Of a stretch of 38,499 nt of DNA, positions 1 to 38,144 are shown in pieces (position 1 is the first letter of the stretch; each line of letters starts with the position of its first letter). A model generated the notes under the pieces. The model searched no databases. It was not told where the DNA came from and saw only the letters and a program-made list of their open reading frames with translations. The stretch lies in the sequence record DRR723986_19984, one strand, 5' to 3'. The position numbers and the translations under genes were made by a program.

Positions 1-2634
1 CTGATCGATCAGTGCATTGATGGAATGCAGAAGTTTTTTGATGTCGTGGAAGTGTAGTCCAGTCGTCGGTTCATCAAAGATAAATAGGATATGATCACCC
101 TGTTTAGTTCCGCCCTTGCCTAGGAAGGAAGCCAGCTTTACCCGCTGAGCTTCACCACCTGAAAGCGTGTTGGAGCTTTGTCCCATACCAATATAGCCAA
201 GCCCGACTTCCTGTAGTGGTTGCAGTTTATTGATAATCTGAGTCTTTCCCTTAAAGAAATCTAAGGCTTCATCGATGGTCATATTCAATACGTCAGAGAT
301 GTCCTTCTCCTTGTACTTTACGTCCAATATCTCGTTCTTAAATCGCTTGCCTTTGCAGGACTCGCAAGTGAGATGTATATCTGCCATAAACTGCATTTCA
401 ACAGTGGTGATTCCTTCTCCGGCGCAATTTTCACAGCGACCACCATCCACGTTGAAAGAGAAAAAAGCAGGTTTATAGCCTCGCTGCTTGGAAATAGGCT
501 GCTCGGAGAAAAGCATACGAATTGCGTCATAGGCTTTCACATAAGTCACAGGATTAGATCGGGACGACTTTCCTATAGGGTTTTGATCCACAAATTCCAC
601 TTGAGAAATGGATTTGTAGTCTCCCTCGATCTTGTCGTACTTTCCACTTTCGTCGATGACAGTTCCCAGCATTTTTCCCAAAGCAGGATAAAGCACTTTT
701 TTGATCAGAGTAGACTTGCCTGAACCGGAAACTCCAGTTACACAGGTGAGCATGTTCAGCGGGAATTTTACAGAAATGTTCTTAAGGTTATTTTCCCTAG
801 CGCCTTTTACTGTAATTGAATCCTTCCACTTGCGATTGCCATCTTTCTGGAAAATCAACTCTTCCCCACGCAAATATTTGGCAGTGTGCGTCTGAGCGGA
901 GGTCATCAGTTCAGCTATTGTCCCTTGGAAAAGCAACTCTCCTCCATGTACACCAGCATCTGGGCCAATATCAATGATCTGATCAGCCGCTTTCATTACC
1001 TTTTCTTCGTGTTCAACTACGATCACGGTGTTGCCCAGATCTCGAAGTGACTTCAACACTTCGACCAAACGATCGGTGTCTCTTGGATGCAAACCGATGC
1101 TTGGTTCATCTAAGATATACATGGAACCTACCAGCGCAGAACCCAAGGAAGTCGCCAATTTGATACGCTGAAATTCCCCGCCAGAAAGAGTAGAGGTCAA
1201 TCGATGTAAGGTCAGGTAGCCTAATCCAACCTGATCCATATACTCCAATCGACTCTGGATTTCTTTCAGCAATCTGTTCGCGATTTTTGCCTGATGGGGT
1301 GGAAGATCAAGGCTATTGAAAAATGGCAATGCTTCGTCAATCGGCATCAGCACGATATCCTGAATGGATTTATCTTCGATTTTTACATAAGAAGCATCTT
1401 TGCGCAAGCGCGTTCCCTTACAGTCAGGGCAAGTCGTACGACCGCGGAAACGTGAAAGCATTACGCGATATTGAATCTTATGAGTTTTGGTTTCCAGGTC
1501 TTTGAAAAATGCGTCCAGACCTTTGAAATACTTGTTCCCCGTCCAAAGCAAGGCTTTTTCCTTGTCATTCAGATCCTCATAAGCTCTATGAATAGGGAAG
1601 TCAAACTCGATTCCTTTTTTCAAAAGCGGTTCCACCCAAGCTCGTGAGGATTCCCCTCGCCAAGGAGCAATTGCGCCTTCGTAAACAGACATACTTTTGT
1701 CTGGAATTACCAAATCAGGATCTATTCCCAGCACATTTCCAAATCCTTCGCAGGTACGGCAGGCACCGAATGGATTGTTGAAAGAGAAGAAGTTGACCGA
1801 AGGGATCTCGAACTGCATGCCGTCGAGTTCAAAGCGATCTGAGAAACTCTTTGTCTCTTGACCAGGAATAGTGATTTTGCAGTCACCATGGCCTTCGAAA
1901 AGCGCAGTTTGCACCGAATCAGCAATACGGAATTGATTATCTTCATCCTCCTTGTGAACAGCCACACGGTCGATTAAGATCTCATAATTCCCCTTTTGAA
2001 TCTTTTTTTCCTGAAGCAAATCTTCGACAAAATAGGCTTCATCGTCAATTAAAATCCGTGTATATCCTTTTTGCAAGAGCAATTCCAACTCTTGGTTGAT
2101 CTTCCTTCCACGCTCAATTTGAAGCGGGCAGGAAATCATGACTTTCGATCCCTCTTCAAAAGATTGAATGTAATCCACGATGTCTGTGACGGTGTGATGC
2201 TTTACTTCTTTCCCAGAAATCGGCGAGATTGTTTTCCCTATTCTGGAGAAAAGTAGCTTGAGGTAATCGTAAATTTCTGTTGTTGTCCCTACGGTGGAGC
2301 GAGGATTTTTTGTATTGACTTTTTGCTGAATAGCGATGGCCGGAGCTACACCCTTGATGTATTCCACATCGGGTTTTTCCATCCTGCCGAGAAACTGGCG
2401 GGCATAAGAACTTAAGCTTTCCACATACATGCGTTGGCCTTCGGCAAACAGCGTATCGAAAGCCAAAGAAGACTTTCCAGAGCCCGAGAGCCCGGTTACA
2501 ACAACAAATTTATTTCTTGGAATTGCGACGCTCAGGCTTTTCAGGTTGTTCACCCGGGCGTTTTTGATGATAATGAATTCCTTGGGATCGAGGGAATCGA
2601 TGGATGTATTGGCTGTTAATGTACTCAAAGTCAT
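1..2634 (-). CDS. uvrA: Excinuclease ABC subunit A, 3' end outside the window
   Basis: Manual translation from ATG at 2634 gives [82 protein letters not shown] second Walker A ([10 protein letters not shown]), [12 protein letters not shown] and [11 protein letters not shown] lie near the left edge in the same frame (878 codons in window). The ORF track omits it because the stop codon is outside the window. Confidence 0.97.
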
Positions 2635-2640
2635 AGGGGA

Positions 2641-2648
2641 CAAAGTTA
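2641..2648 (-). promoter_or_regulatory. Bacteroidetes -7 promoter element for uvrA
   Basis: Minus strand reads TAACTTTG, an exact TAnnTTTG match, ending 6 nt before the uvrA ATG. No clear -33 TTTG element. Confidence 0.55.
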
Positions 2649-2912
2649 CGAAAGGAACAGAGGAACTCCTTGGAAAGTTTGAAGCTTGCAGCAAATTGTC
2701 GGATATGGATGGCAATCCTTAATTCGCGATATGTTAAGATATACTAGTTCGTTTAGGCGAATGGCTTGGGGGGAAGTAGACAAATTTGCTGTAGCGTTTG
2801 TAATGAAGGAACCGTCATTTACATGTGAATGATGTTTCAAGGTTCTTTGAATTATCTAGGCGTGTCGCTTTATCCATATTTTGTAGCAGTTTTTTTACAT
2901 TAAAATGAAATT

Positions 2913-3431
2913 ATGAAAATTTTCAGCAAACGTTTTTGGGTTCTAATCCCGGTAGTTTTAGTACTGTTTTCTTGTGAGGAAGCAGAAAAGCCTTGCGGAT
3001 ATACCAACCTTGACGTGGCCTTCCTTTTCAATGTAGTCAATCAAGAGAATGTTGATTTATTGGACCCAAGCGAGCCAAAACACCTTGAAGCGAGCGATTT
3101 GTCAGTTTCTTTTCTCCTCGATGGAGAGAAAGTTGAGGTTTATGACTCTAAGATTAACCACTTGAAAAGCTTTCCTAGGATAGTAGAACCAGAGCCTTTG
3201 GCGGGTGTGTATAAGTACGTACTAAATGTGATTTTAAATTCATCAGAGGATGAAGCTATACCAACCACCTATTTGGAGTGGAAAGATGGATCAATAGATG
3301 AATTGCAAGCTGAATTTAGTTATAGTGGCAATTCTGTAATCGTTAAGAAGCTTTGGCTGAATGGAGATCTAATTTGGGATATGCAAAGGGATGGAGAAAA
3401 GCCTATTTACCCACTTGTTAAGGACTTCTAA
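2913..3431 (+). CDS. Hypothetical lipoprotein
   Basis: 172 aa ORF with a basic N-terminus, hydrophobic stretch and lipobox LFSC followed by acidic residues. No recognised domain. Confidence 0.8.
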   Translation: MKIFSKRFWVLIPVVLVLFSCEEAEKPCGYTNLDVAFLFNVVNQENVDLLDPSEPKHLEASDLSVSFLLDGEKVEVYDSKINHLKSFPRIVEPEPLAGVYKYVLNVILNSSEDEAIPTTYLEWKDGSIDELQAEFSYSGNSVIVKKLWLNGDLIWDMQRDGEKPIYPLVKDF

Positions 3432-3461
3432 GAACAGCGATTATCAAAGTTGCTTTCCATT

Positions 3462-3493
3462 AAAGATGCTTCCCATGGTTGGGAGGCATTTTT
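3462..3493 (+). terminator. Rho-independent terminator after the lipoprotein gene
   Basis: AAAGATGCTTCCCA-TGGT-TGGGAGGCATTTTT stem-loop ending in a T tract. Confidence 0.75.
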
Positions 3494-3597
3494 ATTGGCT
3501 GGATATTTCCGCTTTTGGTTAAGTATTTTCCTGCCAGGCAATTTCCAATCCGCCACTGCAGACAAGTACTTACAATTTTATTCCTTTTCTTCGCATA

Positions 3598-4221
3598 ATG
3601 GAATTCCAATTTTTATACGATGGAATAAGGGAAGGCCTTGCTGCGATGACTTGGCTGGAAGCTATTGCTGTGTTTTTCGGAATTGCTTCTGTGGTTTATT
3701 CGATGCGGGAGCACATTTGGGTATATCCCACGGGCATTATTTCTACGCTCATCTACGTTTGGATTTGTTTGCAATACAAGCTCTACGCCGATATGGGTAT
3801 CAATGCTTATTACTTCAGTATGTCTATTTTCGGCTGGTATGTGTGGACTCATCCGAAGGAGGGAAAAGCGGAGCTGCCTGTGACTTGGCTCAAACCTTCG
3901 GGTTGGGTGGCTTCATTAGGAATATTTGTGTTGTCTTATGTTGTTCTCGTATATGTCTTGGTCAATTTCACCGACAGCGATGTGCCGTATTGGGATTCCT
4001 TCACTACTGCTTCAGCTTTTGTAGGGATGTGGTTGATGGCAAAAAAGAAGGTTGAAAACTGGATTTTCTGGATTTTGACTGATTTGGTGGCTGTTCCGCT
4101 TTATTTTTACAAAGGCCTAATCTTGACCTCATTTCAGTATCTTTTCTTCACAGTATTGGCGATTATGGGCCTAATTGCTTGGATCAAATCAGCGAGAAGA
4201 CATGAGATTTATGCTTTATAA
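3598..4221 (+). CDS. pnuC: PnuC-family nicotinamide riboside transporter
   Basis: 207 aa polytopic membrane protein with GWYVW, DSFTT, WLMAKKKVENWIFW and LYFYKGL motifs, next to a NadR-like kinase. Confidence 0.9.
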   Translation: MEFQFLYDGIREGLAAMTWLEAIAVFFGIASVVYSMREHIWVYPTGIISTLIYVWICLQYKLYADMGINAYYFSMSIFGWYVWTHPKEGKAELPVTWLKPSGWVASLGIFVLSYVVLVYVLVNFTDSDVPYWDSFTTASAFVGMWLMAKKKVENWIFWILTDLVAVPLYFYKGLILTSFQYLFFTVLAIMGLIAWIKSARRHEIYAL

Positions 4222-29600: not shown

Positions 29601-31145
29601 TCAATAAATCTTCACTTCCTTGAAATGGGCATAAGAATCTGTTGGTCCTTTGGCTACTAATCCAAGGCGGAATCCCATGCCCCAAGGCACAAGATGCTTC
29701 ACGTCTTGTGTCTCGCCAATTTGAATTGCTTTTCCATCCACAAGGGCCGAAGTAGTCATTTTGTAGCCGTCTTCCATGCTTAAAACTAATTTGACTTCTT
29801 TGCTGTCTGGAATCGCCAGTTTGGCAATTTCTCTAGTCTTCTGGTTGATCGTTTCCCAAAGGATCAGCTGGTTTCCCTTTACAGAAATGCCCATTCCTGC
29901 AGGAGGAGCACCGAAGCCATTATTAGCACCACCAATTACCGCTAATCCGGCTGCAGCATTCCCGTCAGGAATCACTGTTGCTTCGTATTGATAATCCAGA
30001 GATTTTGTGCCTTGAACCAATAGAGTTCCCAGCGTTTCATTTTCCTCAGAAGCCTGTAGTCTCAGACCTTTTTTACCGGTTTCATACTGAATATCCTGAG
30101 TAACACGCCATTGCCAAACTGGATCCAGTCGCTTTTTAAAATCGTCATTAAATTCCAAGGAAGCTTTGCTACGCTCGTATTTTTCATCGTTTGCGAAAAC
30201 TGGCCATTCATCAGCTGTCCATTCTACTTTTTGCAAAACACCTTGCCGACCTACGTAAACAGATCCCTCCTGATTATAAGCATGGTTTAACAGCCAAAGC
30301 TCTCCATCTTTCTCGACTACGGTTCCGTGTCCAGGGCATTTCCAGTTCTCATTATCCTTGATGACTGGATTCATATCGTATTTTTCCCATGGTCCCAGAA
30401 GTGTTTTACTTCGTGCTACGCCAGTTACATAGTCACAGGAGATTTCGCAGCAACCACGAGCAGAATAAGTCGCATAGAAATAGCCGTTCTTTCTGAAAAT
30501 GGCAATGCCTTCTACCAAACCACCTTCCCAATCCTGATCATTGTGGAAAAGCTCATGCTTCTCACCGATCAGTTTGGTGCGTTCCCCGTTCACTTCCTGA
30601 GCCCATATTGGAGTTTTTTGGCCTTTGCTATTTCCATCTTCCTTCCAAAGGACATAGAGTTTGCCATTTTCATCACGGGTTTCAAAAGCATCGATCGATC
30701 CATATTCCTGAGCGACAAGTGGGCCATGATCTTTAAAACTTCCTTCGGGAGAATCTGCGCTAGCTACTGCGACGGAAAGCCTATTACTTTCTTTATCTCG
30801 GGCAGTATAGTAAGCGTAAATTTTATTTTGCTCCGCATCATACGAAAGCTCAGGAGCCCAGAAATTATTCTTTGCCCAATCTGGAGCTCCATCTGGAAAA
30901 ACATAGTTTACCAGCTCCCAATTCACCAAATCATCGGATTTGAAGATTGGAAAAAGTGGTGCCCACTCGTTAGAGGTGGCCGAAGCGTAATAGTATTTGC
31001 CAACCTTCACCACCGTTGGATCTGGGCGATCACCTGCCAAAACTGGATTTGCAAAAGTCAGGCTTTGTGCTAGTCCTGAGCTAGAAACTACAATTATTAT
31101 ACAGAGTGTAGCAAGAATTCTATGATAATAAAAAAGCCTACTCAT
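29601..31145 (-). CDS. Glycoside hydrolase family 43 with C-terminal beta-sandwich domain
   Basis: NPVLAGDRPDP, WAPE, IDAF, VEG and GHG motifs, followed by F.DDF...WQWR at the start of the C-terminal domain. Confidence 0.92.
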   Translation of the reverse strand: MSRLFYYHRILATLCIIIVVSSSGLAQSLTFANPVLAGDRPDPTVVKVGKYYYASATSNEWAPLFPIFKSDDLVNWELVNYVFPDGAPDWAKNNFWAPELSYDAEQNKIYAYYTARDKESNRLSVAVASADSPEGSFKDHGPLVAQEYGSIDAFETRDENGKLYVLWKEDGNSKGQKTPIWAQEVNGERTKLIGEKHELFHNDQDWEGGLVEGIAIFRKNGYFYATYSARGCCEISCDYVTGVARSKTLLGPWEKYDMNPVIKDNENWKCPGHGTVVEKDGELWLLNHAYNQEGSVYVGRQGVLQKVEWTADEWPVFANDEKYERSKASLEFNDDFKKRLDPVWQWRVTQDIQYETGKKGLRLQASEENETLGTLLVQGTKSLDYQYEATVIPDGNAAAGLAVIGGANNGFGAPPAGMGISVKGNQLILWETINQKTREIAKLAIPDSKEVKLVLSMEDGYKMTTSALVDGKAIQIGETQDVKHLVPWGMGFRLGLVAKGPTDSYAHFKEVKIY

Positions 31146-33288
31146 TGATTTTTGGGTTATTTTCTAACTGGGGAAATGCGGTAATTCTTAATCTCGCTGC
31201 ACCCATTGGAACGAGTGTTACATCCACTATGGGCTGATCGGAAATCTTTGGAAGGTCCTTCAATTCTCCCACCAAACCATATTGATCCAGTTTCCACTCG
31301 GGAATTTGACGGGCTTTTGCCACGATTTTAATTGGAACTTCCTCTAGGGAGAATGGGAAATCAGATTTTGGCCAATGTCCTTCCATTACTTCGAAAGAGG
31401 ATGCAGGATCATTTTCGTCCACTACCAAACTGTAGTTCCAATCCGTTACGGGATGAATTTCCCAAGAAGGCCATTTTTTTGTATCTGCACCTTTCTGCCA
31501 TTTGGAATCCCATTGGGCCGTTTCCTCACTGTCTTTTTTGAAATATTTTTCCCTGATTTTTAATGAATAGGTCAAAGGACCTCTACTTACGCTTAGACTA
31601 TTGCTGTTTTTCTCCCAAGTTTTGGTTTCGATTTCCATTGGAAGCGAAAGCGAAATTTGATCACCGTTAGTCCAAGTTCGGCTGATTTTAGCATAGCCGA
31701 TTCCGGAAATATTTTCTTTCACTACTTCTCCATTGATGGAAATGGAAGCTTCTTTTGCCCATGCGGGAATACGTAAATAAAGAGGGAAGTCTACTGCTTT
31801 TGCTGTGCTCAGCGCAAACTTGATTTCCTCTTCGAATGGGTAATGCGTTGTTTCTTCGATGTTTACAATTGCCCCATCACCAACTTTTACTTCCACTTTG
31901 CTAGCTCCATATATTGCCGCTACGACACCATTATCAGGAGTGGCCATCCATAGATTTTCTATAAAATAGGGCCAGCCTTGCGCATGATTATGCTGGCAGC
32001 AACGAGAACTGAAAGGATTCATCATCAGGAATGGGCCAGAGTTAGCAATTCCTGGTGAATGATTCTCAGCATCCAGCAAAACCATATTTGGTGAAGTGAT
32101 GTAATGCAAGGCCTTGAAGTCAGGCATCACAGCTGCTGGATATGTGTTAAACGCAACTTCTTCTGCATGATCTGCCCAGAAGGGATCTCCAGTTATTCTT
32201 AGTAAATGCTCATCGGAATTCATCTGCTCCACCATTCCACAGGTTTCTACACCTTGGCGTGGATCCGCATATCCCGGCCTTGCATTTTCATCAGAGCCAA
32301 ACATGCCGCCAGGAACCTGACCGAAGTGCTCACGGATGATGTTAAAGTTTTCATAAGTGGCCTGAAGGTCTTTCTCGTTTTTGGTCAGTAGATAATACTG
32401 AGCTGGTTCGCGGAATGCCTGGGCATGGTTTACATTGTGCCAATCGACTTGATCGCGATACCAATCCGGGACTTCGCCTCCATCACGTACTTCATAATAA
32501 TTTTTCACCTGTTCGATAGGCAGATCTCTCCCTCCCCAATCGGAAGTATTCTGGTGGATTTTTTCAGCTAGTTCTAATAAAAAATCGTCTCCTGTGCGGT
32601 TGTAAAGCCAAATCACACTATGAAGATTATCTCCCCCACGTAATCTTTGCCAGTATCCTTCGAGGAATTCATCATCTGGGACCGTTAGTTCATATTTGAA
32701 ATAATTGGTCATTAGGGTGATCACACGCTCATCCTGAGAATACTCGTAATACGATTGTAGACAGTAAAGCATGATCATTTTTGCCCAGAAATCTGGATGA
32801 TCTCCATCCATAAGTTTGGGCCCAAAATCACCATTTTCCCGCTGACTGGTAAGCACAGATTCCAGCCAGATCATGGATTCATCGATCATGGCTTGGTCCT
32901 CCATGATGTAGCCGATGTTGGCGTATCCTTTCAGCCAATAGGGCACTTCTTCCCAGCCCCATTCTCCAGTGCCATCTTTAGAGAGCCAGGCGTTATTTTC
33001 TTTTTGAAGCCAAGCGGAAATTTCTCCTAGGTTACCAGTAAGGCCATTTTTCTGACGAATGAGGTATTCTTTTAAAAATCCCTCAGGCTTCACAGCACCT
33101 ACGGGAAGCTTAATCAGCGCACTGGGCGCCAAAGGCGCCCGGTTGCTGATGTAAAATGGATTTGTGTTTTCTGTGGGGATTCGGTCGACGATTGTGACCG
33201 AGTTATTGGATTTTATTCCAGAGGTACAAGAAATCAGTGCTGCACAGAAAATAAGTGCAAGCGTTGATTTAAAGCGGTTTTTTAACAT
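31138..33288 (-). CDS. GH127/GH146-type beta-L-arabinofuranosidase-like protein, lipoprotein
   Basis: HNVN, ETC and RCC (Glu/Cys3 zinc-site pattern), YPFEE, LRIPAW and RGPLTY motifs, lipobox LISC. Start moved to ATG 33288. Confidence 0.88.
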   Translation of the reverse strand: MLKNRFKSTLALIFCAALISCTSGIKSNNSVTIVDRIPTENTNPFYISNRAPLAPSALIKLPVGAVKPEGFLKEYLIRQKNGLTGNLGEISAWLQKENNAWLSKDGTGEWGWEEVPYWLKGYANIGYIMEDQAMIDESMIWLESVLTSQRENGDFGPKLMDGDHPDFWAKMIMLYCLQSYYEYSQDERVITLMTNYFKYELTVPDDEFLEGYWQRLRGGDNLHSVIWLYNRTGDDFLLELAEKIHQNTSDWGGRDLPIEQVKNYYEVRDGGEVPDWYRDQVDWHNVNHAQAFREPAQYYLLTKNEKDLQATYENFNIIREHFGQVPGGMFGSDENARPGYADPRQGVETCGMVEQMNSDEHLLRITGDPFWADHAEEVAFNTYPAAVMPDFKALHYITSPNMVLLDAENHSPGIANSGPFLMMNPFSSRCCQHNHAQGWPYFIENLWMATPDNGVVAAIYGASKVEVKVGDGAIVNIEETTHYPFEEEIKFALSTAKAVDFPLYLRIPAWAKEASISINGEVVKENISGIGYAKISRTWTNGDQISLSLPMEIETKTWEKNSNSLSVSRGPLTYSLKIREKYFKKDSEETAQWDSKWQKGADTKKWPSWEIHPVTDWNYSLVVDENDPASSFEVMEGHWPKSDFPFSLEEVPIKIVAKARQIPEWKLDQYGLVGELKDLPKISDQPIVDVTLVPMGAARLRITAFPQLENNPKINE

Positions 33289-33547
33289 TTTTAGCAGGTT
33301 TTGGGACAATAAATGTTCCCGAAAGTGCAACGCCTTGCTTCAAACTAGGTTTGATCTTAGTTGTGTTTCTAGTGTAGGTCTTTTTCATAATAGGTTTGGG
33401 TTTTTGTTATTAAAAATAGATTTGACTCTAGCTAGCAAGGTAGTAATCAAAATCTAAAAAGCACTTTATTTTTGAGGGCAATATCTAAAAGTCTATAATT
33501 CCTATAGGAAATTATACTCCCTCATACCTAGGAGACTATAAAAAACT

Positions 33548-34591
33548 CTACTTCCAAACTGGTGCTTTTTGTGAGGTGATGCTTGGTTCAAAATTTTCAA
33601 TAGTGGGCCATTCTTCTTTCCAGCTAATCTTGTCCAATAGCAACGTTCTTCTGTTAGTCCCATTTTTGAGTTTAGGTTTTTGCTTGGCCAATCCATGATA
33701 CAGTAGCCAATCCTGACCTTCGGAATCTGTGATGATTTCTGCATTGTGTCCAGGGCCGGCATAGCCATTTCCGCTTGCATTTGGACCTACCACCAAAGTC
33801 CCAGAGTCAGCATCTAGCATACTTTTACCCTGCTGATCAAAATAAGGTCCTTCCAGATTCTCCGACCTTCCGACTAGAACTTTGTACGTGCTATTTGCTC
33901 CTTCACAGCAAGTTCCAGCAGAACCAAAAAGATAGTAAAATCCATTTTTCTCATAGATATAGGCTGCTTCCAGATGATTACCTGCAAGTTGGATTTTTTG
34001 TCCTTGAGGCTTTTTGCCATCAGCAGTCAATTCAGTCATGTACAAACCATGGAAACTTCCCCAGGCTAGGTATTTCTTCCCGCCTTGTTCTATATAAAAA
34101 GGGTCAATTGAATTACTGACACCAATTTCCTTTGAGTCAAAAACTTTCCCTTGATCTACAAATGGTCCTTCCGGCCTTTCAGCAATCGCCAATCCTACTC
34201 CAGGATTTGGATCTCCCCAAGTGGAAAAGGAATAGTACATGTAAAACTGCTCCCCGACTTGTGTGACGTCCGGTGCCCAGATGCCTCCTCTTTCTTTCCA
34301 TTCAGGCTTTTTGTCCATAGAGTTGCCTAGCAATTCCCAGTTTATCAGGTCTTTCGACTTGATCACAGGAACCAAGTGATAGCCGCCTTCTCCACCCCAA
34401 TTATCCTCTGTGCCATACGCATAGAATTCCGCGCCAACCTGAACGACTGTTGGGTCTGCAAGCACCGGTTCAAAGACAGGATTGGCATACCTGAGCGTGT
34501 CATTAGTCTGCGATGAATACTCAGCCGCCACAATTTTAGAAGGATTCTGATATACTGTGAATAGGATGATTAGCAGAGGGACAATGGGCAT
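33548..34591 (-). CDS. Glycoside hydrolase family 43, single catalytic domain
   Basis: NPV...ADP, IWAPD, SIDP, EAAY, GTCCEG and GPGHN motifs. Confidence 0.92.
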   Translation of the reverse strand: MPIVPLLIILFTVYQNPSKIVAAEYSSQTNDTLRYANPVFEPVLADPTVVQVGAEFYAYGTEDNWGGEGGYHLVPVIKSKDLINWELLGNSMDKKPEWKERGGIWAPDVTQVGEQFYMYYSFSTWGDPNPGVGLAIAERPEGPFVDQGKVFDSKEIGVSNSIDPFYIEQGGKKYLAWGSFHGLYMTELTADGKKPQGQKIQLAGNHLEAAYIYEKNGFYYLFGSAGTCCEGANSTYKVLVGRSENLEGPYFDQQGKSMLDADSGTLVVGPNASGNGYAGPGHNAEIITDSEGQDWLLYHGLAKQKPKLKNGTNRRTLLLDKISWKEEWPTIENFEPSITSQKAPVWK

Positions 34592-34764
34592 GACGATTAA
34601 ATTTGGCTCTCTAAGTTATACGAAAATGTTTTCTAGTGAGAAATTCGAAAGGAGAGTTTGGAGATGAAAATCGTCACAGGATTTTTACTTTTAACTCCGT
34701 TTAATATGGAGAGAATTCACCTTTAGAAATTCTATCCCCATTTTTACTGTCTATACCTTTCCAC

Positions 34765-34772
34765 TATATTTG
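34765..34772 (+). promoter_or_regulatory. Bacteroidetes -7 promoter element for the ABC-F gene
   Basis: TATATTTG, an exact TAnnTTTG match, about 110 nt upstream of ATG 34881. Confidence 0.65.
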
Positions 34773-34795
34773 CACCTCATTCCCGCACAATCACT

Positions 34796-34881
34796 ATGTG
34801 AAATCTAATTTCTTTCTGACTATAAATACGGCAATCCAGCCTCTTGGTAACGCTGTTTGTTTAATCTTCAAAAAGAAATTA
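34796..34881 (+). promoter_or_regulatory. Structured leader: start-stop uORF plus hairpin covering the ABC-F initiation region
   Basis: ATG-TGA at 34796-34801. TAATTTCTTTCTGA (34806-34819) is complementary at 13 of 14 positions to TCAAAAAGAAATTA (34868-34881). Confidence 0.6.
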
Positions 34882-36467
34882 TGCTCATTTTACAGAACAT
34901 CACCTATATACATCCCAATAAGGATTTGTTGTTTGAAAACATCAACCTTACCCTTAATCAACACCAAAAAGTTGCCTTAATTGGAAATAACGGTGTGGGA
35001 AAATCCACCCTTTTGCGAATCATCGCTCAGGAAATCTCATCCTCAGACGGGCAGTTGATAATAGAATCCCAACCTTATTATATCCCTCAGATTTTCGGGC
35101 AGTTCAATCATCTCACCATAGCTCAGGCTCTGGGAATTTCCGAAAAACTCACGGCCTTTCATGAAATTCTCGATGGAAAAGCGACTGAAAGCAATTTGCT
35201 TTTGCTTGACGACGATTGGACTGTAGAAGAGCGATGTAAAGAAGCGCTGGCGTATTGGCAAATTTCAGAATTTGATCTTTCAGAAAAACTTGAAAATCTC
35301 AGCGGGGGGCAAAAAACTAAGGTTTTTCTGGCTGGGATTGCGATTCATAAGCCTGATCTGGTGCTGCTTGATGAGCCGAGCAATCATCTTGACACGGAAT
35401 CCAGAAATCTGCTCTACAATTATATTTCCTCCACTTCCAATGCCTTATTGCTAGTGAGTCATGATCGGAAACTGCTGAACCTACTGGATACTGTATGCGA
35501 ACTCACCCGAAGAGGTATCCACACCTATGGAGGGAATTATGATTTCTACGCTGCACAAAAACAGCAGGAACTTGCTGCCCTCGACCATGATGTAAAAAGC
35601 AAGGAAAAGGCGTTGCGAAAGGCCAAAGAGAAAGAGCTGGAAACAGTAGAAAGACAGCAAAAGTTGGATGCCCGAGGCAAGAAAAAGCAGGAGAAAGCTG
35701 GAATTGCGACGATCATGATGAATACGCTTCGAAACAATGCAGAAAAGAGTACTTCTAAAATCAAAAATGTCCATACTGAGAAAATTGGAGGGATTTCTCA
35801 GGAATTGCAGGAATTGAGAAAAGAGTTGCCGGACATCGATAAAATGAAGTTTGGCTTTGACAATGCTAAGTTGCACAGAGGCAAAGTGCTCATTACTTCA
35901 GATTACATGAATTTCTCATACCATGGGCAGAACCTGTGGAAAACTAACTTGGATTTTCAGATTACAAGTGGTGAGAGAATTGCCCTGAAGGGACAAAATG
36001 GCTCTGGAAAAACTACGTTGATCAAGCTTATATTGGGAGATTTAAATCCTCAGATCGGTAAACTTTTCCGAGCTGAAATAAATGCTGTTTACATCGATCA
36101 GGATTATTCCTTGATAGACAATAGCCTAAGTGTTTACGAGCAAGCAGAGCGATATAATTCCTCCGAACTGAAAGAACATGAAGTCAAAATCAGGCTAAAT
36201 CGGTTTCTTTTCACTAAAGAAGATTGGAGTAAATCCTGTAGCGTGCTTAGTGGAGGAGAACGCATGCGACTCATGCTCTGCTGCCTTACGATCAGCAGTC
36301 ATGCACCGGATATGATCATTTTGGATGAACCGACCAATAACCTGGACATCCAAAACATCGAAATACTCACCGCTGCCATCAACGAATATCAGGGTACATT
36401 GCTCGTGGTTTCCCACGATGAGCCTTTTCTAGAGCAGGTGATGATAGAGTCCTTCATCCAACTTTGA
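34881..36467 (+). CDS. ABC-F family ATPase (ribosome-associated, ribosomal-protection-like)
   Basis: Two nucleotide-binding domains (GNNGVGKS/LSGGQ/LDEPSNHLD and GQNGSGKT/LSGGE/LDEPTNNLD), YGGNY followed by a long charged linker, no transmembrane domain. Start taken as ATG 34881. Confidence 0.93.
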   Translation: MLILQNITYIHPNKDLLFENINLTLNQHQKVALIGNNGVGKSTLLRIIAQEISSSDGQLIIESQPYYIPQIFGQFNHLTIAQALGISEKLTAFHEILDGKATESNLLLLDDDWTVEERCKEALAYWQISEFDLSEKLENLSGGQKTKVFLAGIAIHKPDLVLLDEPSNHLDTESRNLLYNYISSTSNALLLVSHDRKLLNLLDTVCELTRRGIHTYGGNYDFYAAQKQQELAALDHDVKSKEKALRKAKEKELETVERQQKLDARGKKKQEKAGIATIMMNTLRNNAEKSTSKIKNVHTEKIGGISQELQELRKELPDIDKMKFGFDNAKLHRGKVLITSDYMNFSYHGQNLWKTNLDFQITSGERIALKGQNGSGKTTLIKLILGDLNPQIGKLFRAEINAVYIDQDYSLIDNSLSVYEQAERYNSSELKEHEVKIRLNRFLFTKEDWSKSCSVLSGGERMRLMLCCLTISSHAPDMIILDEPTNNLDIQNIEILTAAINEYQGTLLVVSHDEPFLEQVMIESFIQL

Positions 36468-36582: not shown

Positions 36583-37974
36583 CTACTTATTAAACCGATC
36601 AGGGTGTAGTTCTGAGTATTTTTTGTCTTCTGACAAACCCATGAAAATTGGATCCATCAAGGACTTTTCCCATGTTTTGATCATATTTTCCAATGCTTTG
36701 ACCCGCTCTGCCTGAGTAGCAGCTAAATTTATTTTTTCAGCGATATCCTTTTGGATATCAAAAAGATAAGTTTCATCCTTCTTTAGGATTTGCTTGCTGT
36801 CTATTGTCCGGATCGCAAATTTCTGTGTGTCGTAATTTCTCCAATAAAGCTCTTGATGCGGAATTCCATTGTTTTCACCAGTCAGGTAAGGAATCAGATT
36901 CACTCCATCCAGTTCGTTTTTAGGAGTCACTTTAGCCAGAGCAACAGCGGTGGAGAATATGTCCAGAGAGATCACAGGATTGTCATACCTGATGCCCTCA
37001 GGAATGACACCTTTCCACTGTACCGCAAAAGGAACGCGTACTCCACCTTCAAAGAAATCACCCTTGAAACCGCGTAGAGGAGCATTGTCAGCAGCGTTAT
37101 GTGCGGTAGGTCCGCCATTATCAGATAAAAAGAAAACCAAGGTATTGTCATCTAGCTCCAATTCTTCCAGTTTATCCAACAAAGCACCAACCCCGTCATC
37201 CACCGCACTTACCATGGCAGCATAGGTTCTACGCTTGATGTCTTTGATGTGCAAAAACCGGTTGAGATACTTCTCTGTAGCCTCCATAGGTGCATGTGGT
37301 GCATTGTAAGCTAGATACATGAAGAACGGTTCTTTCTGGTGTCTTTGGACGAAATCAACAGCTTCTCGGGACAAGGCATCCGTGAGGTATTCTGTCTCTT
37401 CTACCCGCTCGGTATTTCTGAGCAATTTGGTATTATAGGCATCGTATTGGGATTTGGATTGCTCTATATCCTGCAAGGTAAAGTCCTCAGGAAAGTACCT
37501 ATGTCCACCGCTGAGAAATCCATAAAATTCATCAAACCCTCTTTTATTTGGCCTTAAAGTCGGGTGAACCCCCATATGCCATTTTCCAAAAGCAACCGTG
37601 GCATATCCTGCTTTTTTCATGGCGGCGCCTAGGGTCTCCTCGCTGAGAGGAAGCCCCATCAGTGAATCCTTCGGAGCCATCAACGGGTTTTTTGCGAAGC
37701 CAAATTTGTCCTGATATCTGCCAGTAAGCAAGCCCGCTCTGCTAGGCCCACAAACTGCATAAGAAACGTAGCCGGAAGTAAATACTACCCCATTTTTTGC
37801 AATTCGATCAATTCCCGGGGTTGGGATTTCTGTGCTGCCGTTGAAGCCCACATCTGCATATCCCTGATCGTCGGTAAGGATGATGATTACATTGGGCTTG
37901 TCTGCAGCAGTTCTATCCTGAGCAAATAAATTGGATGAAAAGACAAAAAATAGACTGAGGGCAAAATATCTCAT
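36583..37974 (-). CDS. Formylglycine-dependent (S1) sulfatase, secreted
   Basis: PNVIIILTDDQG, CGPSR, GKWHMG, SDNGG and FEGGVRVP motifs. Start moved to ATG 37974 (signal peptide). Confidence 0.94.
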   Translation of the reverse strand: MRYFALSLFFVFSSNLFAQDRTAADKPNVIIILTDDQGYADVGFNGSTEIPTPGIDRIAKNGVVFTSGYVSYAVCGPSRAGLLTGRYQDKFGFAKNPLMAPKDSLMGLPLSEETLGAAMKKAGYATVAFGKWHMGVHPTLRPNKRGFDEFYGFLSGGHRYFPEDFTLQDIEQSKSQYDAYNTKLLRNTERVEETEYLTDALSREAVDFVQRHQKEPFFMYLAYNAPHAPMEATEKYLNRFLHIKDIKRRTYAAMVSAVDDGVGALLDKLEELELDDNTLVFFLSDNGGPTAHNAADNAPLRGFKGDFFEGGVRVPFAVQWKGVIPEGIRYDNPVISLDIFSTAVALAKVTPKNELDGVNLIPYLTGENNGIPHQELYWRNYDTQKFAIRTIDSKQILKKDETYLFDIQKDIAEKINLAATQAERVKALENMIKTWEKSLMDPIFMGLSEDKKYSELHPDRFNK

Positions 37975-38144
37975 AGGGGTAGATTCAAGCGTTATTTTGA
38001 AAATTAGACTAGGGGCGAATTTATTGATTAATGGCAAGTTTGGTGGTTCTATTTGACCAATACGCGATCTTCAGTGATAATTGGGCAAAAGGACTAGAGT
38101 CTAATTTTTCTAGTTTAAGATTATGCTGATCTTGGATGTACAGA

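Follow-up and report, generated by a model that had tools for sequence, protein, structure and literature searches.

What can a start codon that is followed at once by a stop codon contribute to the gene downstream of it? The question is raised by a stretch of 38,499 nucleotides from sequence record DRR723986_19984 (the whole stretch is called the window below), in which an ATG-TGA mini-frame, here termed a start-stop, stands between a promoter-like box and the start codon of a gene for an ATPase of the ABC-F family. An earlier examination of the letters alone, the sequence-only reading, had suggested that this start-stop and an adjoining hairpin form a minimal antibiotic-sensing attenuator. 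Promoter, start-stop, spacer, hairpin and start codon form a module that is conserved and specific to one group of ABC-F orthologues; selection acts on the start-stop at the level of codons and on the stem at the level of base pairs; and the geometry is such that a ribosome placed on the start-stop overlaps the hairpin arm that hides the ABC-F start. The element is very probably a working cis-regulatory leader with a translated start-stop at its centre. Our reading, to which we give a probability of roughly 0.6, is that positions 34765-34883 comprise the promoter and 5' leader of a gene resembling the antibiotic-resistance (ARE) ABC-F genes and act as a purely translational attenuator, in which the upstream open reading frame (uORF) has been reduced to zero elongation and which drugs would induce.

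In a single leader of 100 nt an ATG followed by a stop codon is unremarkable, and the significance of the present one lies in its conservation at the same place in orthologous leaders. Orthologues were collected by a pattern scan of one genome per species, which gave 512 relatives; the best 80 of the 512 (66–98% identity) were kept and cover all major classes of the Bacteroidota. Two of the 80 were dropped for short upstream DNA (L012, 10 nt; L038, 45 nt), and the remaining 78 together with the window made 79 leaders, 77 of them distinct. The closest orthologue among the best 80 of 512 is that of Algoriphagus winogradskyi (L005; 98% protein identity). More distant orthologues were added from further genome samples, which were drawn around the nearest genome (G001), giving 93 distinct loci in all (46–98% protein identity). 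The sequences are phylogenetically related, and the counts given below are not independent trials.

A start codon stands immediately before a stop codon in 89 of the 93 distinct Bacteroidota loci (85 ATG, 4 GTG), and the other four carry mini-frames of 2–6 sense codons (MK-stop, MKI-stop twice and MKIISF-stop). Every stop codon is represented at the second position, TAA in 37 loci, TGA in 33 and TAG in 19, and the remaining 4 loci have a sense codon there. Within the 79 leaders, the mini-frames are ATG-TAA (31), ATG-TGA (28), ATG-TAG (16), GTG-TAA (2) and ATGAAA (2). The start-stop persists in all of the added orthologues of 58–69% identity, two of which start with GTG (L099 and L101), and its position is occupied by MKI-stop at 52% (L094) and by MK-stop at 46% identity (L104); the leader of a locus of 49% identity (L103), which is built differently and has a five-codon frame (MKISK), was excluded from the start-stop counts. 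Its place is equally constant. Among the 78 loci with usable upstream DNA, the start-stop lies at −79 to −91 of the ABC-F start in 75 of the 76 start-stop leaders (L063 has it at −48), and 67 of 77 leaders have 7 nt between the stop codon and the TTTC core of the 5' hairpin arm. The background of a start-plus-stop hexamer is 0.00107 per position over all collected loci, which gives a chance expectation of about 1.3 of 93 in an interval of 13 nt, where 88 were observed. The ATG-stop, its spacing to the hairpin and the stem, on whose conservation in orthologous leaders the sequence-only reading had staked its case, therefore all recur.

How the two codons vary is as informative as their presence. 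On the protein tree (a quick maximum-likelihood search under LG+G4), the second codon has undergone at least 28 changes, of which at least 25 lead from stop to stop and 3 run between stop and sense, and the start codon has undergone 3 changes between ATG and GTG; five shuffles of the labels needed 42–46 second-codon changes. TGG occurs in none of the 93 loci although G-U pairing would tolerate it, which argues for a constraint on stop function and not on pairing. These patterns agree with the prediction from selection on the start and stop codons and disagree with that from selection on pairing alone, and from them we infer that the start-stop is translated, with both its start and its stop conserved as codons. 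A 60-codon frame that opens at the GTG overlapping ATGTGA (34798–34980), traverses the hairpin and enters ABC-F out of frame was considered and rejected, as no such GTG exists in the 56 of 93 leaders that have ATGTAA or ATGTAG.

One leader stands apart. In L006 (Algoriphagus sp. 4150; positions 1409–1521) the promoter box and start-stop are absent and the upstream region is rearranged; a hairpin-like CCCCGACTATTCGGGG lies upstream, and ATGAAAATAATTTCTTTCTGA encodes the six-codon MKIISF, which ends within the 5' arm. This leader may be a deregulated variant.

The other half of the module is the hairpin (Table 1). In the window, TAATTTCTTTCTGA (34806–34819) is complementary to TCAAAAAGAAATTA (34868–34881) at 13 of 14 positions, the exception being one C.A mismatch, and this 5' arm, counted from the A of the start-stop ATG, begins 11 nt further on, within the stretch covered by a ribosome that holds the start-stop AUG in its P site. 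RNAfold turns positions 34778–34900 into a single long stem-loop of −22.6 kcal/mol (z −3.2), which none of 200 dinucleotide shuffles matches and which includes the inner pairs UAAAU/GUUUA and ACGGC/GCUGU. The arm pairing and its inner extension into one stem-loop, which had been read from the letters, are thus reproduced by complementarity and by folding, and the promoter element, the ATG-TGA, both arms and the ABC-F ATG had been placed correctly to the base. Folded singly, the 77 distinct leaders have a median of −23.6 kcal/mol and a median z of −3.3, with z below −2 in 70 of them. In 71 of the 77 minimum-energy folds, the first 36 nt after the start-stop pair with nine or more of the 15 nt in the interval −12 to +3 of the ABC-F start, and in all 17 leaders examined with RNAduplex the last base of the 3' arm falls within −1 to +4 of the ABC-F AUG. 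The inner hairpin may be dispensable, given that the short leader of L063 lacks it. Two leaders (L007 and L052; AAATTGTGCTT) have GTG as the ABC-F start, and its G still stands at the end of the 3' arm.

Table 1. Features of the ABC-F leader and gene, in window coordinates
Feature	Position	Strand	Basis
Bacteroidota −7 promoter box TATATTTG (TAnnTTTG)	34765–34772	+	Sequence and conservation upstream of the start-stop
Start-stop mini-frame ATG-TGA (start codon, zero sense codons, stop)	34796–34801	+	Read directly in the sequence
Possible outermost helix P0, start-stop UGUGAAAU with AUUUUACA (34887–34894, ABC-F codons 3–5); uncertain	34797–34804	+	Minimum-energy fold
5' arm TAATTTCTTTCTGA of the sequestering helix (P1 UAAUUUCUUU, then UGA past one mismatch)	34806–34819	+	Complementarity, RNAfold, alignment
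Inner, sequence-variable hairpin P2/P3 (UAAAUACGGC..CCAG/UUGG..GCUGU..GUUUA), which prolongs P1 into one long stem-loop	34823–34863	+	RNAfold
3' arm, A-rich initiation region UCAAAAAGAAAUUA, its last base the A of the ABC-F start codon	34868–34881	+	Complementarity, RNAfold
ABC-F ATPase gene (528 aa), two nucleotide-binding domains, long interdomain linker	34881–36467	+	Translation, domain and family models

Whether the hairpin is maintained by selection was judged from covariation. RNAalifold predicted no pairs on a plain MAFFT alignment, in which the variable inner hairpin is misaligned. A covariance model was built from a hand-drawn structure and its 84 matches were re-aligned; the resulting alignment leans to the model, and for this reason controls in which the 3' partners were slid or shuffled matter. 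In this model-fitted alignment 81.5% of cells are paired (42–58% in the slid controls), 242 cells are changed on both sides (68–86), and the covariation score is 0.275 (0.056–0.090); none of 500 shuffles reaches the observed covariation values. P1 is paired in 94.5% of cells (82 distinct sequences), and both-side changes occur in all 17 pairs of helices 2–6, the inner hairpin, where most of the covariation is found. P1 receives independent support from distant orthologues in which the arms have been rewritten jointly: compensatory pairs are UAUCUUUUC/GAAAAGAUA (L092), AAAUUCUUUC/GAAAGAAUUU (L100) and GUAGUUUCC/GGAAACUAU (L104), and both arms are also rewritten together in L102, L057, L077, L101, L046 and L082. 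Covariation of the stem, which the sequence-only reading had singled out as a check, is supported by the slid and shuffled controls as well as by this compensatory rewriting. P0 was rejected as an established helix and is retained as a possibility only: its complementarity is high (83.5% of cells pair, against 35–65% when slid), but 250 of 500 shuffles reach the observed covariation value, that is, there is no covariation beyond column composition.

Strong conservation of sequence in the 5' arm and in the U-rich stretch after the inner hairpin, together with the ability of the start-stop bases to pair with ABC-F codons 3–5, would also suit a structured RNA that is not translated at all, in which the hairpin binds a protein, a small RNA or a ligand and ATG-T-R-R is kept merely as part of a structure or binding site. 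Against this stands the behaviour of the mini-frame. The A of the ATG lies outside any helix, yet it is always A or G; the second codon switches among the three stops and never becomes TGG; a sense codon occurs only where an in-frame stop follows within 2–6 codons; and P0, the helix that would hold the start-stop, shows no covariation. A cmscan of positions 34300–35200 against Rfam at E values up to 10 returned five chance-level eukaryotic matches, all far below their gathering scores. We regard this explanation as very improbable.

If the start-stop is translated, the next issue is whether its occupation can reach the ABC-F start. A ribosome was represented by forcing positions −12 to +15 around the start-stop AUG to remain unpaired in the 77 leaders, which raised the mean unpaired probability of ABC-F −12 to +12 from 0.34 to 0.57, and in the window from 0.26 to 0.64; a block of equal size on the hairpin apex gave 0.35. 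The suggestion that a ribosome on the one-codon frame frees the ABC-F start is therefore upheld in its direction by the footprint model, the apex block being without effect, whereas the predicted opening is partial. An RNA structure that hides the initiation region, as in attenuators based on stalling at a uORF, is indicated by the pairing in 71 of 77 folds, the covariation, the compensatory arms and the opening under the footprint. Ribosomes held on the start-stop would switch on translation of ABC-F.

The same proximity of start-stop and ABC-F start could alternatively serve a constitutive purpose. The start-stop would then recruit ribosomes near the 5' end, and a subunit would pass across the hairpin base to the ABC-F AUG and re-initiate there, which would set a fixed level of expression and involve no switch. 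The hairpin does set the start-stop and the ABC-F AUG side by side, P0 and P1 placing both within a few nucleotides, and the stop-to-helix spacing is fixed; a short open reading frame that ends just before a stable hairpin is, moreover, the layout of shunting in plant pararetroviruses. However, we know of no shunt-like mechanism of re-initiation in bacteria. The ABC-F AUG itself lies inside the helix, so that melting would still be required, and passage across the base explains neither the need for a stop directly after the start nor the tolerance of variants with 2–3 codons. Relatives in the gene family are moreover described as using stalling attenuators (PMC9226507, PMC10201436). Constitutive loading is accordingly, in our judgement, a very unlikely account of the leader.

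The position of the module on the transcript depends on the TAnnTTTG box, which we take to be the Bacteroidota −7 element, with transcription presumably beginning a few nucleotides downstream. In 73 of the 77 distinct leaders the box, already recognized at 34765 in the sequence-only reading, precedes the start-stop ATG by 20–30 nt (71 boxes are exact and 2 have a single mismatch); in 3 the distance is 51–56 nt, and 1 (L006) has no box. Transcription in the window would start at about 34777–34780, a few nucleotides after TATATTTG, and if the box is assigned correctly the start-stop at 34796–34801 would lie roughly 18–22 nt from the 5' end of the mRNA, in a leader of roughly 105 nt. In the window leader, the start-stop contains the sole ATG between this predicted transcript start, or the promoter box, and the ABC-F ATG. 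Bacteroidota ribosomes do not use Shine-Dalgarno pairing and need an open, A-rich start region. Initiation in this phylum is tuned by mRNA structure and by an A at −3, and AUG triplets are avoided near start codons (Baez et al., PMC6847099), which makes a stray but conserved AUG in the leader notable.

From these elements a switch can be proposed. In the off state the leader would fold into one long hairpin, the outer helix of which pairs UAAUUUCUUUC with GAAAGAAAUUA up to the ABC-F AUG, and ABC-F would be off by default because initiation in Bacteroidota, without Shine-Dalgarno pairing, needs an open A-rich start region. A ribosome initiating at the AUG-UGA would have nothing to elongate; normally it would be released at once and the hairpin would stay shut. 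Were the 70S ribosome held there, its footprint (to about +15) would extend over the initial half of the 5' arm. This would leave the ABC-F AUG and the A-tract upstream of it single-stranded, and other ribosomes could start on ABC-F. Drugs acting at the peptidyl-transferase centre arrest ribosomes on start codons, and the classical termination literature has peptidyl-transferase inhibitors also blocking the release of fMet that is driven by release factors. Such drugs (lincosamides, pleuromutilins, streptogramin A, phenicols) would hold the ribosome and would be the natural signal, with slow termination or recycling as a further possible cause. The ABC-F protein probably clears the held complexes, which would close a feedback loop and reset the switch.

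The described leaders of ARE ABC-F genes join a terminator with sequestration of the ribosome-binding site (PMC9226507, PMC10201436), which suggests transcription attenuation as another way for a start-stop ribosome to act: the inner hairpin and the U-rich stretch behind it, conserved in a UUUCAUCUUU-like form, would be an intrinsic terminator that this ribosome modulates, as in vmlR, cplR and msrD. An intrinsic terminator in the leader was, however, rejected. No terminator-like site was found in positions 34300–35100, and of the 77 leaders 15 combine an inner hairpin at least as stable as −8 kcal/mol with five or more U in the next 8 nt, a number that falls to 1 when six or more U are required. 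The inner hairpin starts about 27 nt past the start-stop AUG, outside the ribosome footprint, no alternative antiterminator pairing was seen, and the leader of L063 does without the inner hairpin. We consider transcription attenuation highly improbable.

Inducible ribosome-protection genes have so far been known mainly from Gram-positive bacteria, where their uORFs have three or more codons and are usually coupled to a terminator. The likeness to the vmlR, vga and lsa leaders that had been drawn from the sequence is apt, since uORFs of three to four codons are described there as triggered by arrest at initiation (PMC9226507, PMC10201436). The uORF of vmlR, Met-Ile-Asn, is required for induction, with a terminator, NusG pausing and a hairpin that sequesters the Shine-Dalgarno sequence as further layers, and variant uORF peptides of other Bacillus species also support induction (PMC9226507); the uORFs are MR[I/M] for CplR, MK[L/Q] for VmlR2 and MAGN for LsaA (PMC10201436). 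Like the leaders of vmlR, cplR, vmlR2 and lsaA, the present one precedes an ABC-F gene of the ribosome-protection type and has a tiny putative uORF close to its 5' end, and its hairpin would hide the ribosome-binding region of the main gene until the uORF is occupied; the vmlR-type trigger, an initiating ribosome arrested by lincosamides or pleuromutilins, would be the same. The rarer MK-stop and MKI-stop variants resemble the MK[L/Q] uORF of vmlR2 (PMC10201436).

The leader would work in the manner of the vmlR and cplR attenuators, and it is not a strict member of their type for several reasons. In 89 of 93 loci its uORF lacks any sense codon, against three or more in the described members; it has a single hairpin and no conserved intrinsic terminator, so that control would be translational only; it has no Shine-Dalgarno sequence, the hidden part being the A-rich start region and the AUG itself; and it belongs to the phylum Bacteroidota and not to the Bacillota, with no sequence similarity to those leaders and no Rfam model found.

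Translational attenuation of ermC is a textbook system. As in erm-type attenuation (ermC; PMC11264731), a ribosome stalled in the leader would cover a hairpin arm and free the start of the resistance gene; unlike erm, which needs a multi-residue nascent peptide in the exit tunnel together with a macrolide, a start-stop cannot make a peptide. In Escherichia coli, 14 start-stops inside genes were identified by retapamulin-assisted profiling, for which only a subtle or unknown role is proposed, and both retapamulin and the termination inhibitor Api137 give toeprints at E. coli start-stops in vitro (bioRxiv 10.1101/520783); putative start-stops occur also in Campylobacter jejuni (PMC11955535). They share with the present element an AUG that is directly followed by a stop, at which ribosome binding is seen in E. 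coli. The E. coli sites are intragenic and out of frame, and out-of-frame internal starts are described as mostly lacking significant conservation, whereas the start-stop described here lies in a 5' leader, is conserved phylum-wide and is linked both with a hairpin and with one defined target gene. The AUG-stops of eukaryotes (plant NIP5;1, cited in 10.1101/520783; human, PMC13338717 and 10.1101/2021.07.26.453809) are likewise elongation-free mini-frames in 5' leaders that hold ribosomes and regulate a downstream frame; they differ in that their targets are scanning 40S subunits and their effect is mostly repression, or else mRNA decay, with neither hairpin opening nor a link to antibiotics in the accounts cited. 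Full-text literature searches gave no description of a start-stop or an ABC-F leader of this kind in Bacteroidota, in agreement with the statement in the sequence-only reading that it knew of no such architecture for Bacteroidetes ABC-F genes.

What signal the leader responds to depends largely on what its target does. The translation that begins at the ATG at 34881–34883 contains the Walker A motifs GNNGVGKST and GQNGSGKTT, the signatures LSGGQ and LSGGE and the Walker B motifs LLDEPSNHLD and ILDEPTNNLD, in two ABC_tran domains with a K/E/R-rich linker of about 90–100 residues between about 225 and 320. The domain layout of ARE proteins, with two ABC ATPase domains, intact motifs, a long linker and no membrane domain, is thus present. 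The NCBIfam model NF000355 ("ribosomal protection-like ABC-F family protein") fits best by about 130 bits (377.5 bits; next Uup, 248), and its cut-off of 380 is passed by 28 of 40 orthologues that were scanned out of the 79 available (range 328.7 to 398.8 bits). Among solved structures the best match is chain 8buu_9, deposited under the name ExpZ (E 3.6e-69); YheS, Uup, PoxtA and EttA rank behind it. By these matches the gene can be classed as ARE-like, on the edge of the NF000355 model. Murina et al. (PMC6723617) list one ABC-F subfamily, BdAF1, that is confined to Bacteroidetes, and they predict that BAF1-3 are new AREs.

The distribution of the gene is patchy: it was found in 4 of 41 relatives, in 3 of the 25 genus genomes and in 12 of the 401 class genomes, and 6 of 151 phylum genomes contain an orthologue at 52% identity or above. 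The covariance model of the leader has one match in the window and one per genome in 5 of the 151 phylum genomes, which are exactly those with an orthologue of at least 58% identity. In the window, ABC-F is a lone plus-strand gene between minus-strand GH127/GH43 (31138–34591) and sulfatase (36583–38037) genes, a setting which, together with its absence from most genus genomes, fits an inserted accessory gene. One clade is 80–95% identical across the classes Flavobacteriia, Chitinophagia, Bacteroidia and Sphingobacteriia. Within this clade, on a contig of Bergeyella sp. (L008), a gene for a cfr-like radical-SAM 23S rRNA A2503 methyltransferase (3099–4193; NF011024, 402.5 bits, below the cut-off of 468) begins 9 nt past the ABC-F stop, and the start-stop leader may there control an operon of both; operons of ARE-ABCF and Cfr genes on mobile elements are a known theme (Obana et al., PMC10201436). 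In other members of the clade ABC-F is followed by aadS, encoding an aminoglycoside 6-adenylyltransferase (L034:3187-4119; 518 bits, cut-off 450), or by a gene for an IS1595-family transposase (L028:3982-4584, minus strand), or is preceded by a tyrosine recombinase gene that matches the integron integrase model NF040815 (L015:2-1228; 221.4 bits, cut-off 220).

The last of these contigs also holds an exact block (1336–3227), consisting of promoter, leader, gene and 143 nt more, that is common to contigs from four RNA libraries of four studies and is flanked by different sequence on both sides in each; these are assembled contigs and not proof of transcription. The left end of the block begins with GTTAGCGGC, and its right end contains the inverse, GCCGCTAAC, with a long imperfect inverted repeat ending in ...CCGTT. 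The block resembles a gene cassette of the integron type in which promoter and leader travel with the gene. Among the matches listed, this variant is present in 23 runs from 16 studies (8 RNA libraries), mostly from digesters, sludge and wastewater. Patchiness, a mobile clade and cfr-like and aadS neighbours together make a fair circumstantial case that the ABC-F gene confers resistance.

Set against this is the possibility that the leader serves housekeeping autoregulation. The ABC-F protein would resolve slow 70S initiation or termination complexes, and the start-stop would mimic its substrate: with the factor scarce, complexes would linger and the hairpin would open; with the factor plentiful, they would be cleared and the hairpin would close, antibiotics being one input among many. 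The mechanism is in large part that of the drug-responsive attenuator, and the physiological signal alone differs. Most carriers do have environmental chromosomal copies, as in the window, the window protein scores just under the cut-off of the ARE model, and the next-best solved relatives are YheS, Uup, EttA and YbiT; the use of all three stop codons, which means that no single release factor is sensed, is also in keeping with a general role. A housekeeping factor would, however, hardly be expected in so few of the genus and class genomes, nor in a clade of 80–95% identity that crosses classes and adjoins cfr-like, aadS, integrase and insertion-sequence genes, nor in a cassette with different flanks in four runs, and NF000355 leads Uup and EttA by about 130 bits or more. 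We consider housekeeping autoregulation unlikely.

Several observations weigh against the drug-responsive attenuator that we prefer. Partial pairing is predicted for the start-stop AUG itself (mean unpaired probability 0.30), and position −3 of the start-stop is U in 35 of 79 leaders and the favourable A in 22, so that initiation there may be weak. With the footprint in place, the ABC-F start region is 0.57 unpaired and thus not fully open. P1 is mostly conserved in sequence with G-U variation, 8 of its 11 pairs varying on one side only, and it is the inner hairpin that supplies much of the covariation signal. As for the target, the window protein falls 2.5 bits below the NF000355 cut-off and reaches none of the curated named ARE families (Lsa, Vga, Msr, Sal, OptrA, CplR), and chromosomal copies in free-living Bacteroidota could have a housekeeping role in translation.

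A more general interpretation, which we put forward tentatively and hold to be less likely than the attenuator itself, is that the start-stop and hairpin form a portable, peptide-free sensor, general across drug classes, of a 70S ribosome that is unable to leave a start codon, self-limiting and free of host factors. Because neither a nascent chain nor a codon context is needed, such a sensor would respond to any inhibitor of the peptidyl-transferase centre and to failure of release or recycling; it would be self-limiting because the induced ABC-F clears the inducing complex; and since it needs neither Shine-Dalgarno pairing nor a host factor, it could travel with its own promoter in an integron-type cassette among Bacteroidota of digesters and wastewater. 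It would in at least one case drive an operon of ABC-F and a cfr-like gene, and it would represent the minimal end-point of a series of uORF attenuators (MAGN, MIN/MRI, MK, M). Among bacterial start-stops it would be the first for which a regulatory target is defined.

Should the attenuator reading hold, the sensing part of such a switch can shrink to a bare start codon and stop, which fits the idea that it is through arrest at initiation that drugs of the lincosamide and pleuromutilin type are sensed. Bacterial start-stops, which profiling has so far found without a clear role, would gain a concrete, phylum-wide function, and the leader would show the design of a translational switch in a phylum without Shine-Dalgarno initiation. 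The ABC-F genes concerned make up a widespread, partly mobile candidate resistance family in Bacteroidota at the edge of the annotation models, for which the leader is a simple searchable signature, and the leader could serve as a compact part for drug-responsive reporters in this phylum.

Two loci carry additional leader copies. In genome G076, one of the five phylum genomes matched by the covariance model, the matched sequence is an intact ATG-TAA leader (L088; contig 9, minus strand, locus 1501–1612) that precedes an ABC-F frame that is truncated to 24 codons and then meets stops, and an intact, more diverged ABC-F copy on another contig (L092) has a start-stop and rewritten arms and is missed by the covariance model. 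A Capnocytophaga contig from a metagenome-assembled genome (L010) carries at its end, about 800 nt from the first leader, a second copy (L010:1-77, minus strand; 58.4 bits) that is truncated by the contig end and points outward on the opposite strand, which suggests a second, divergently oriented cassette.

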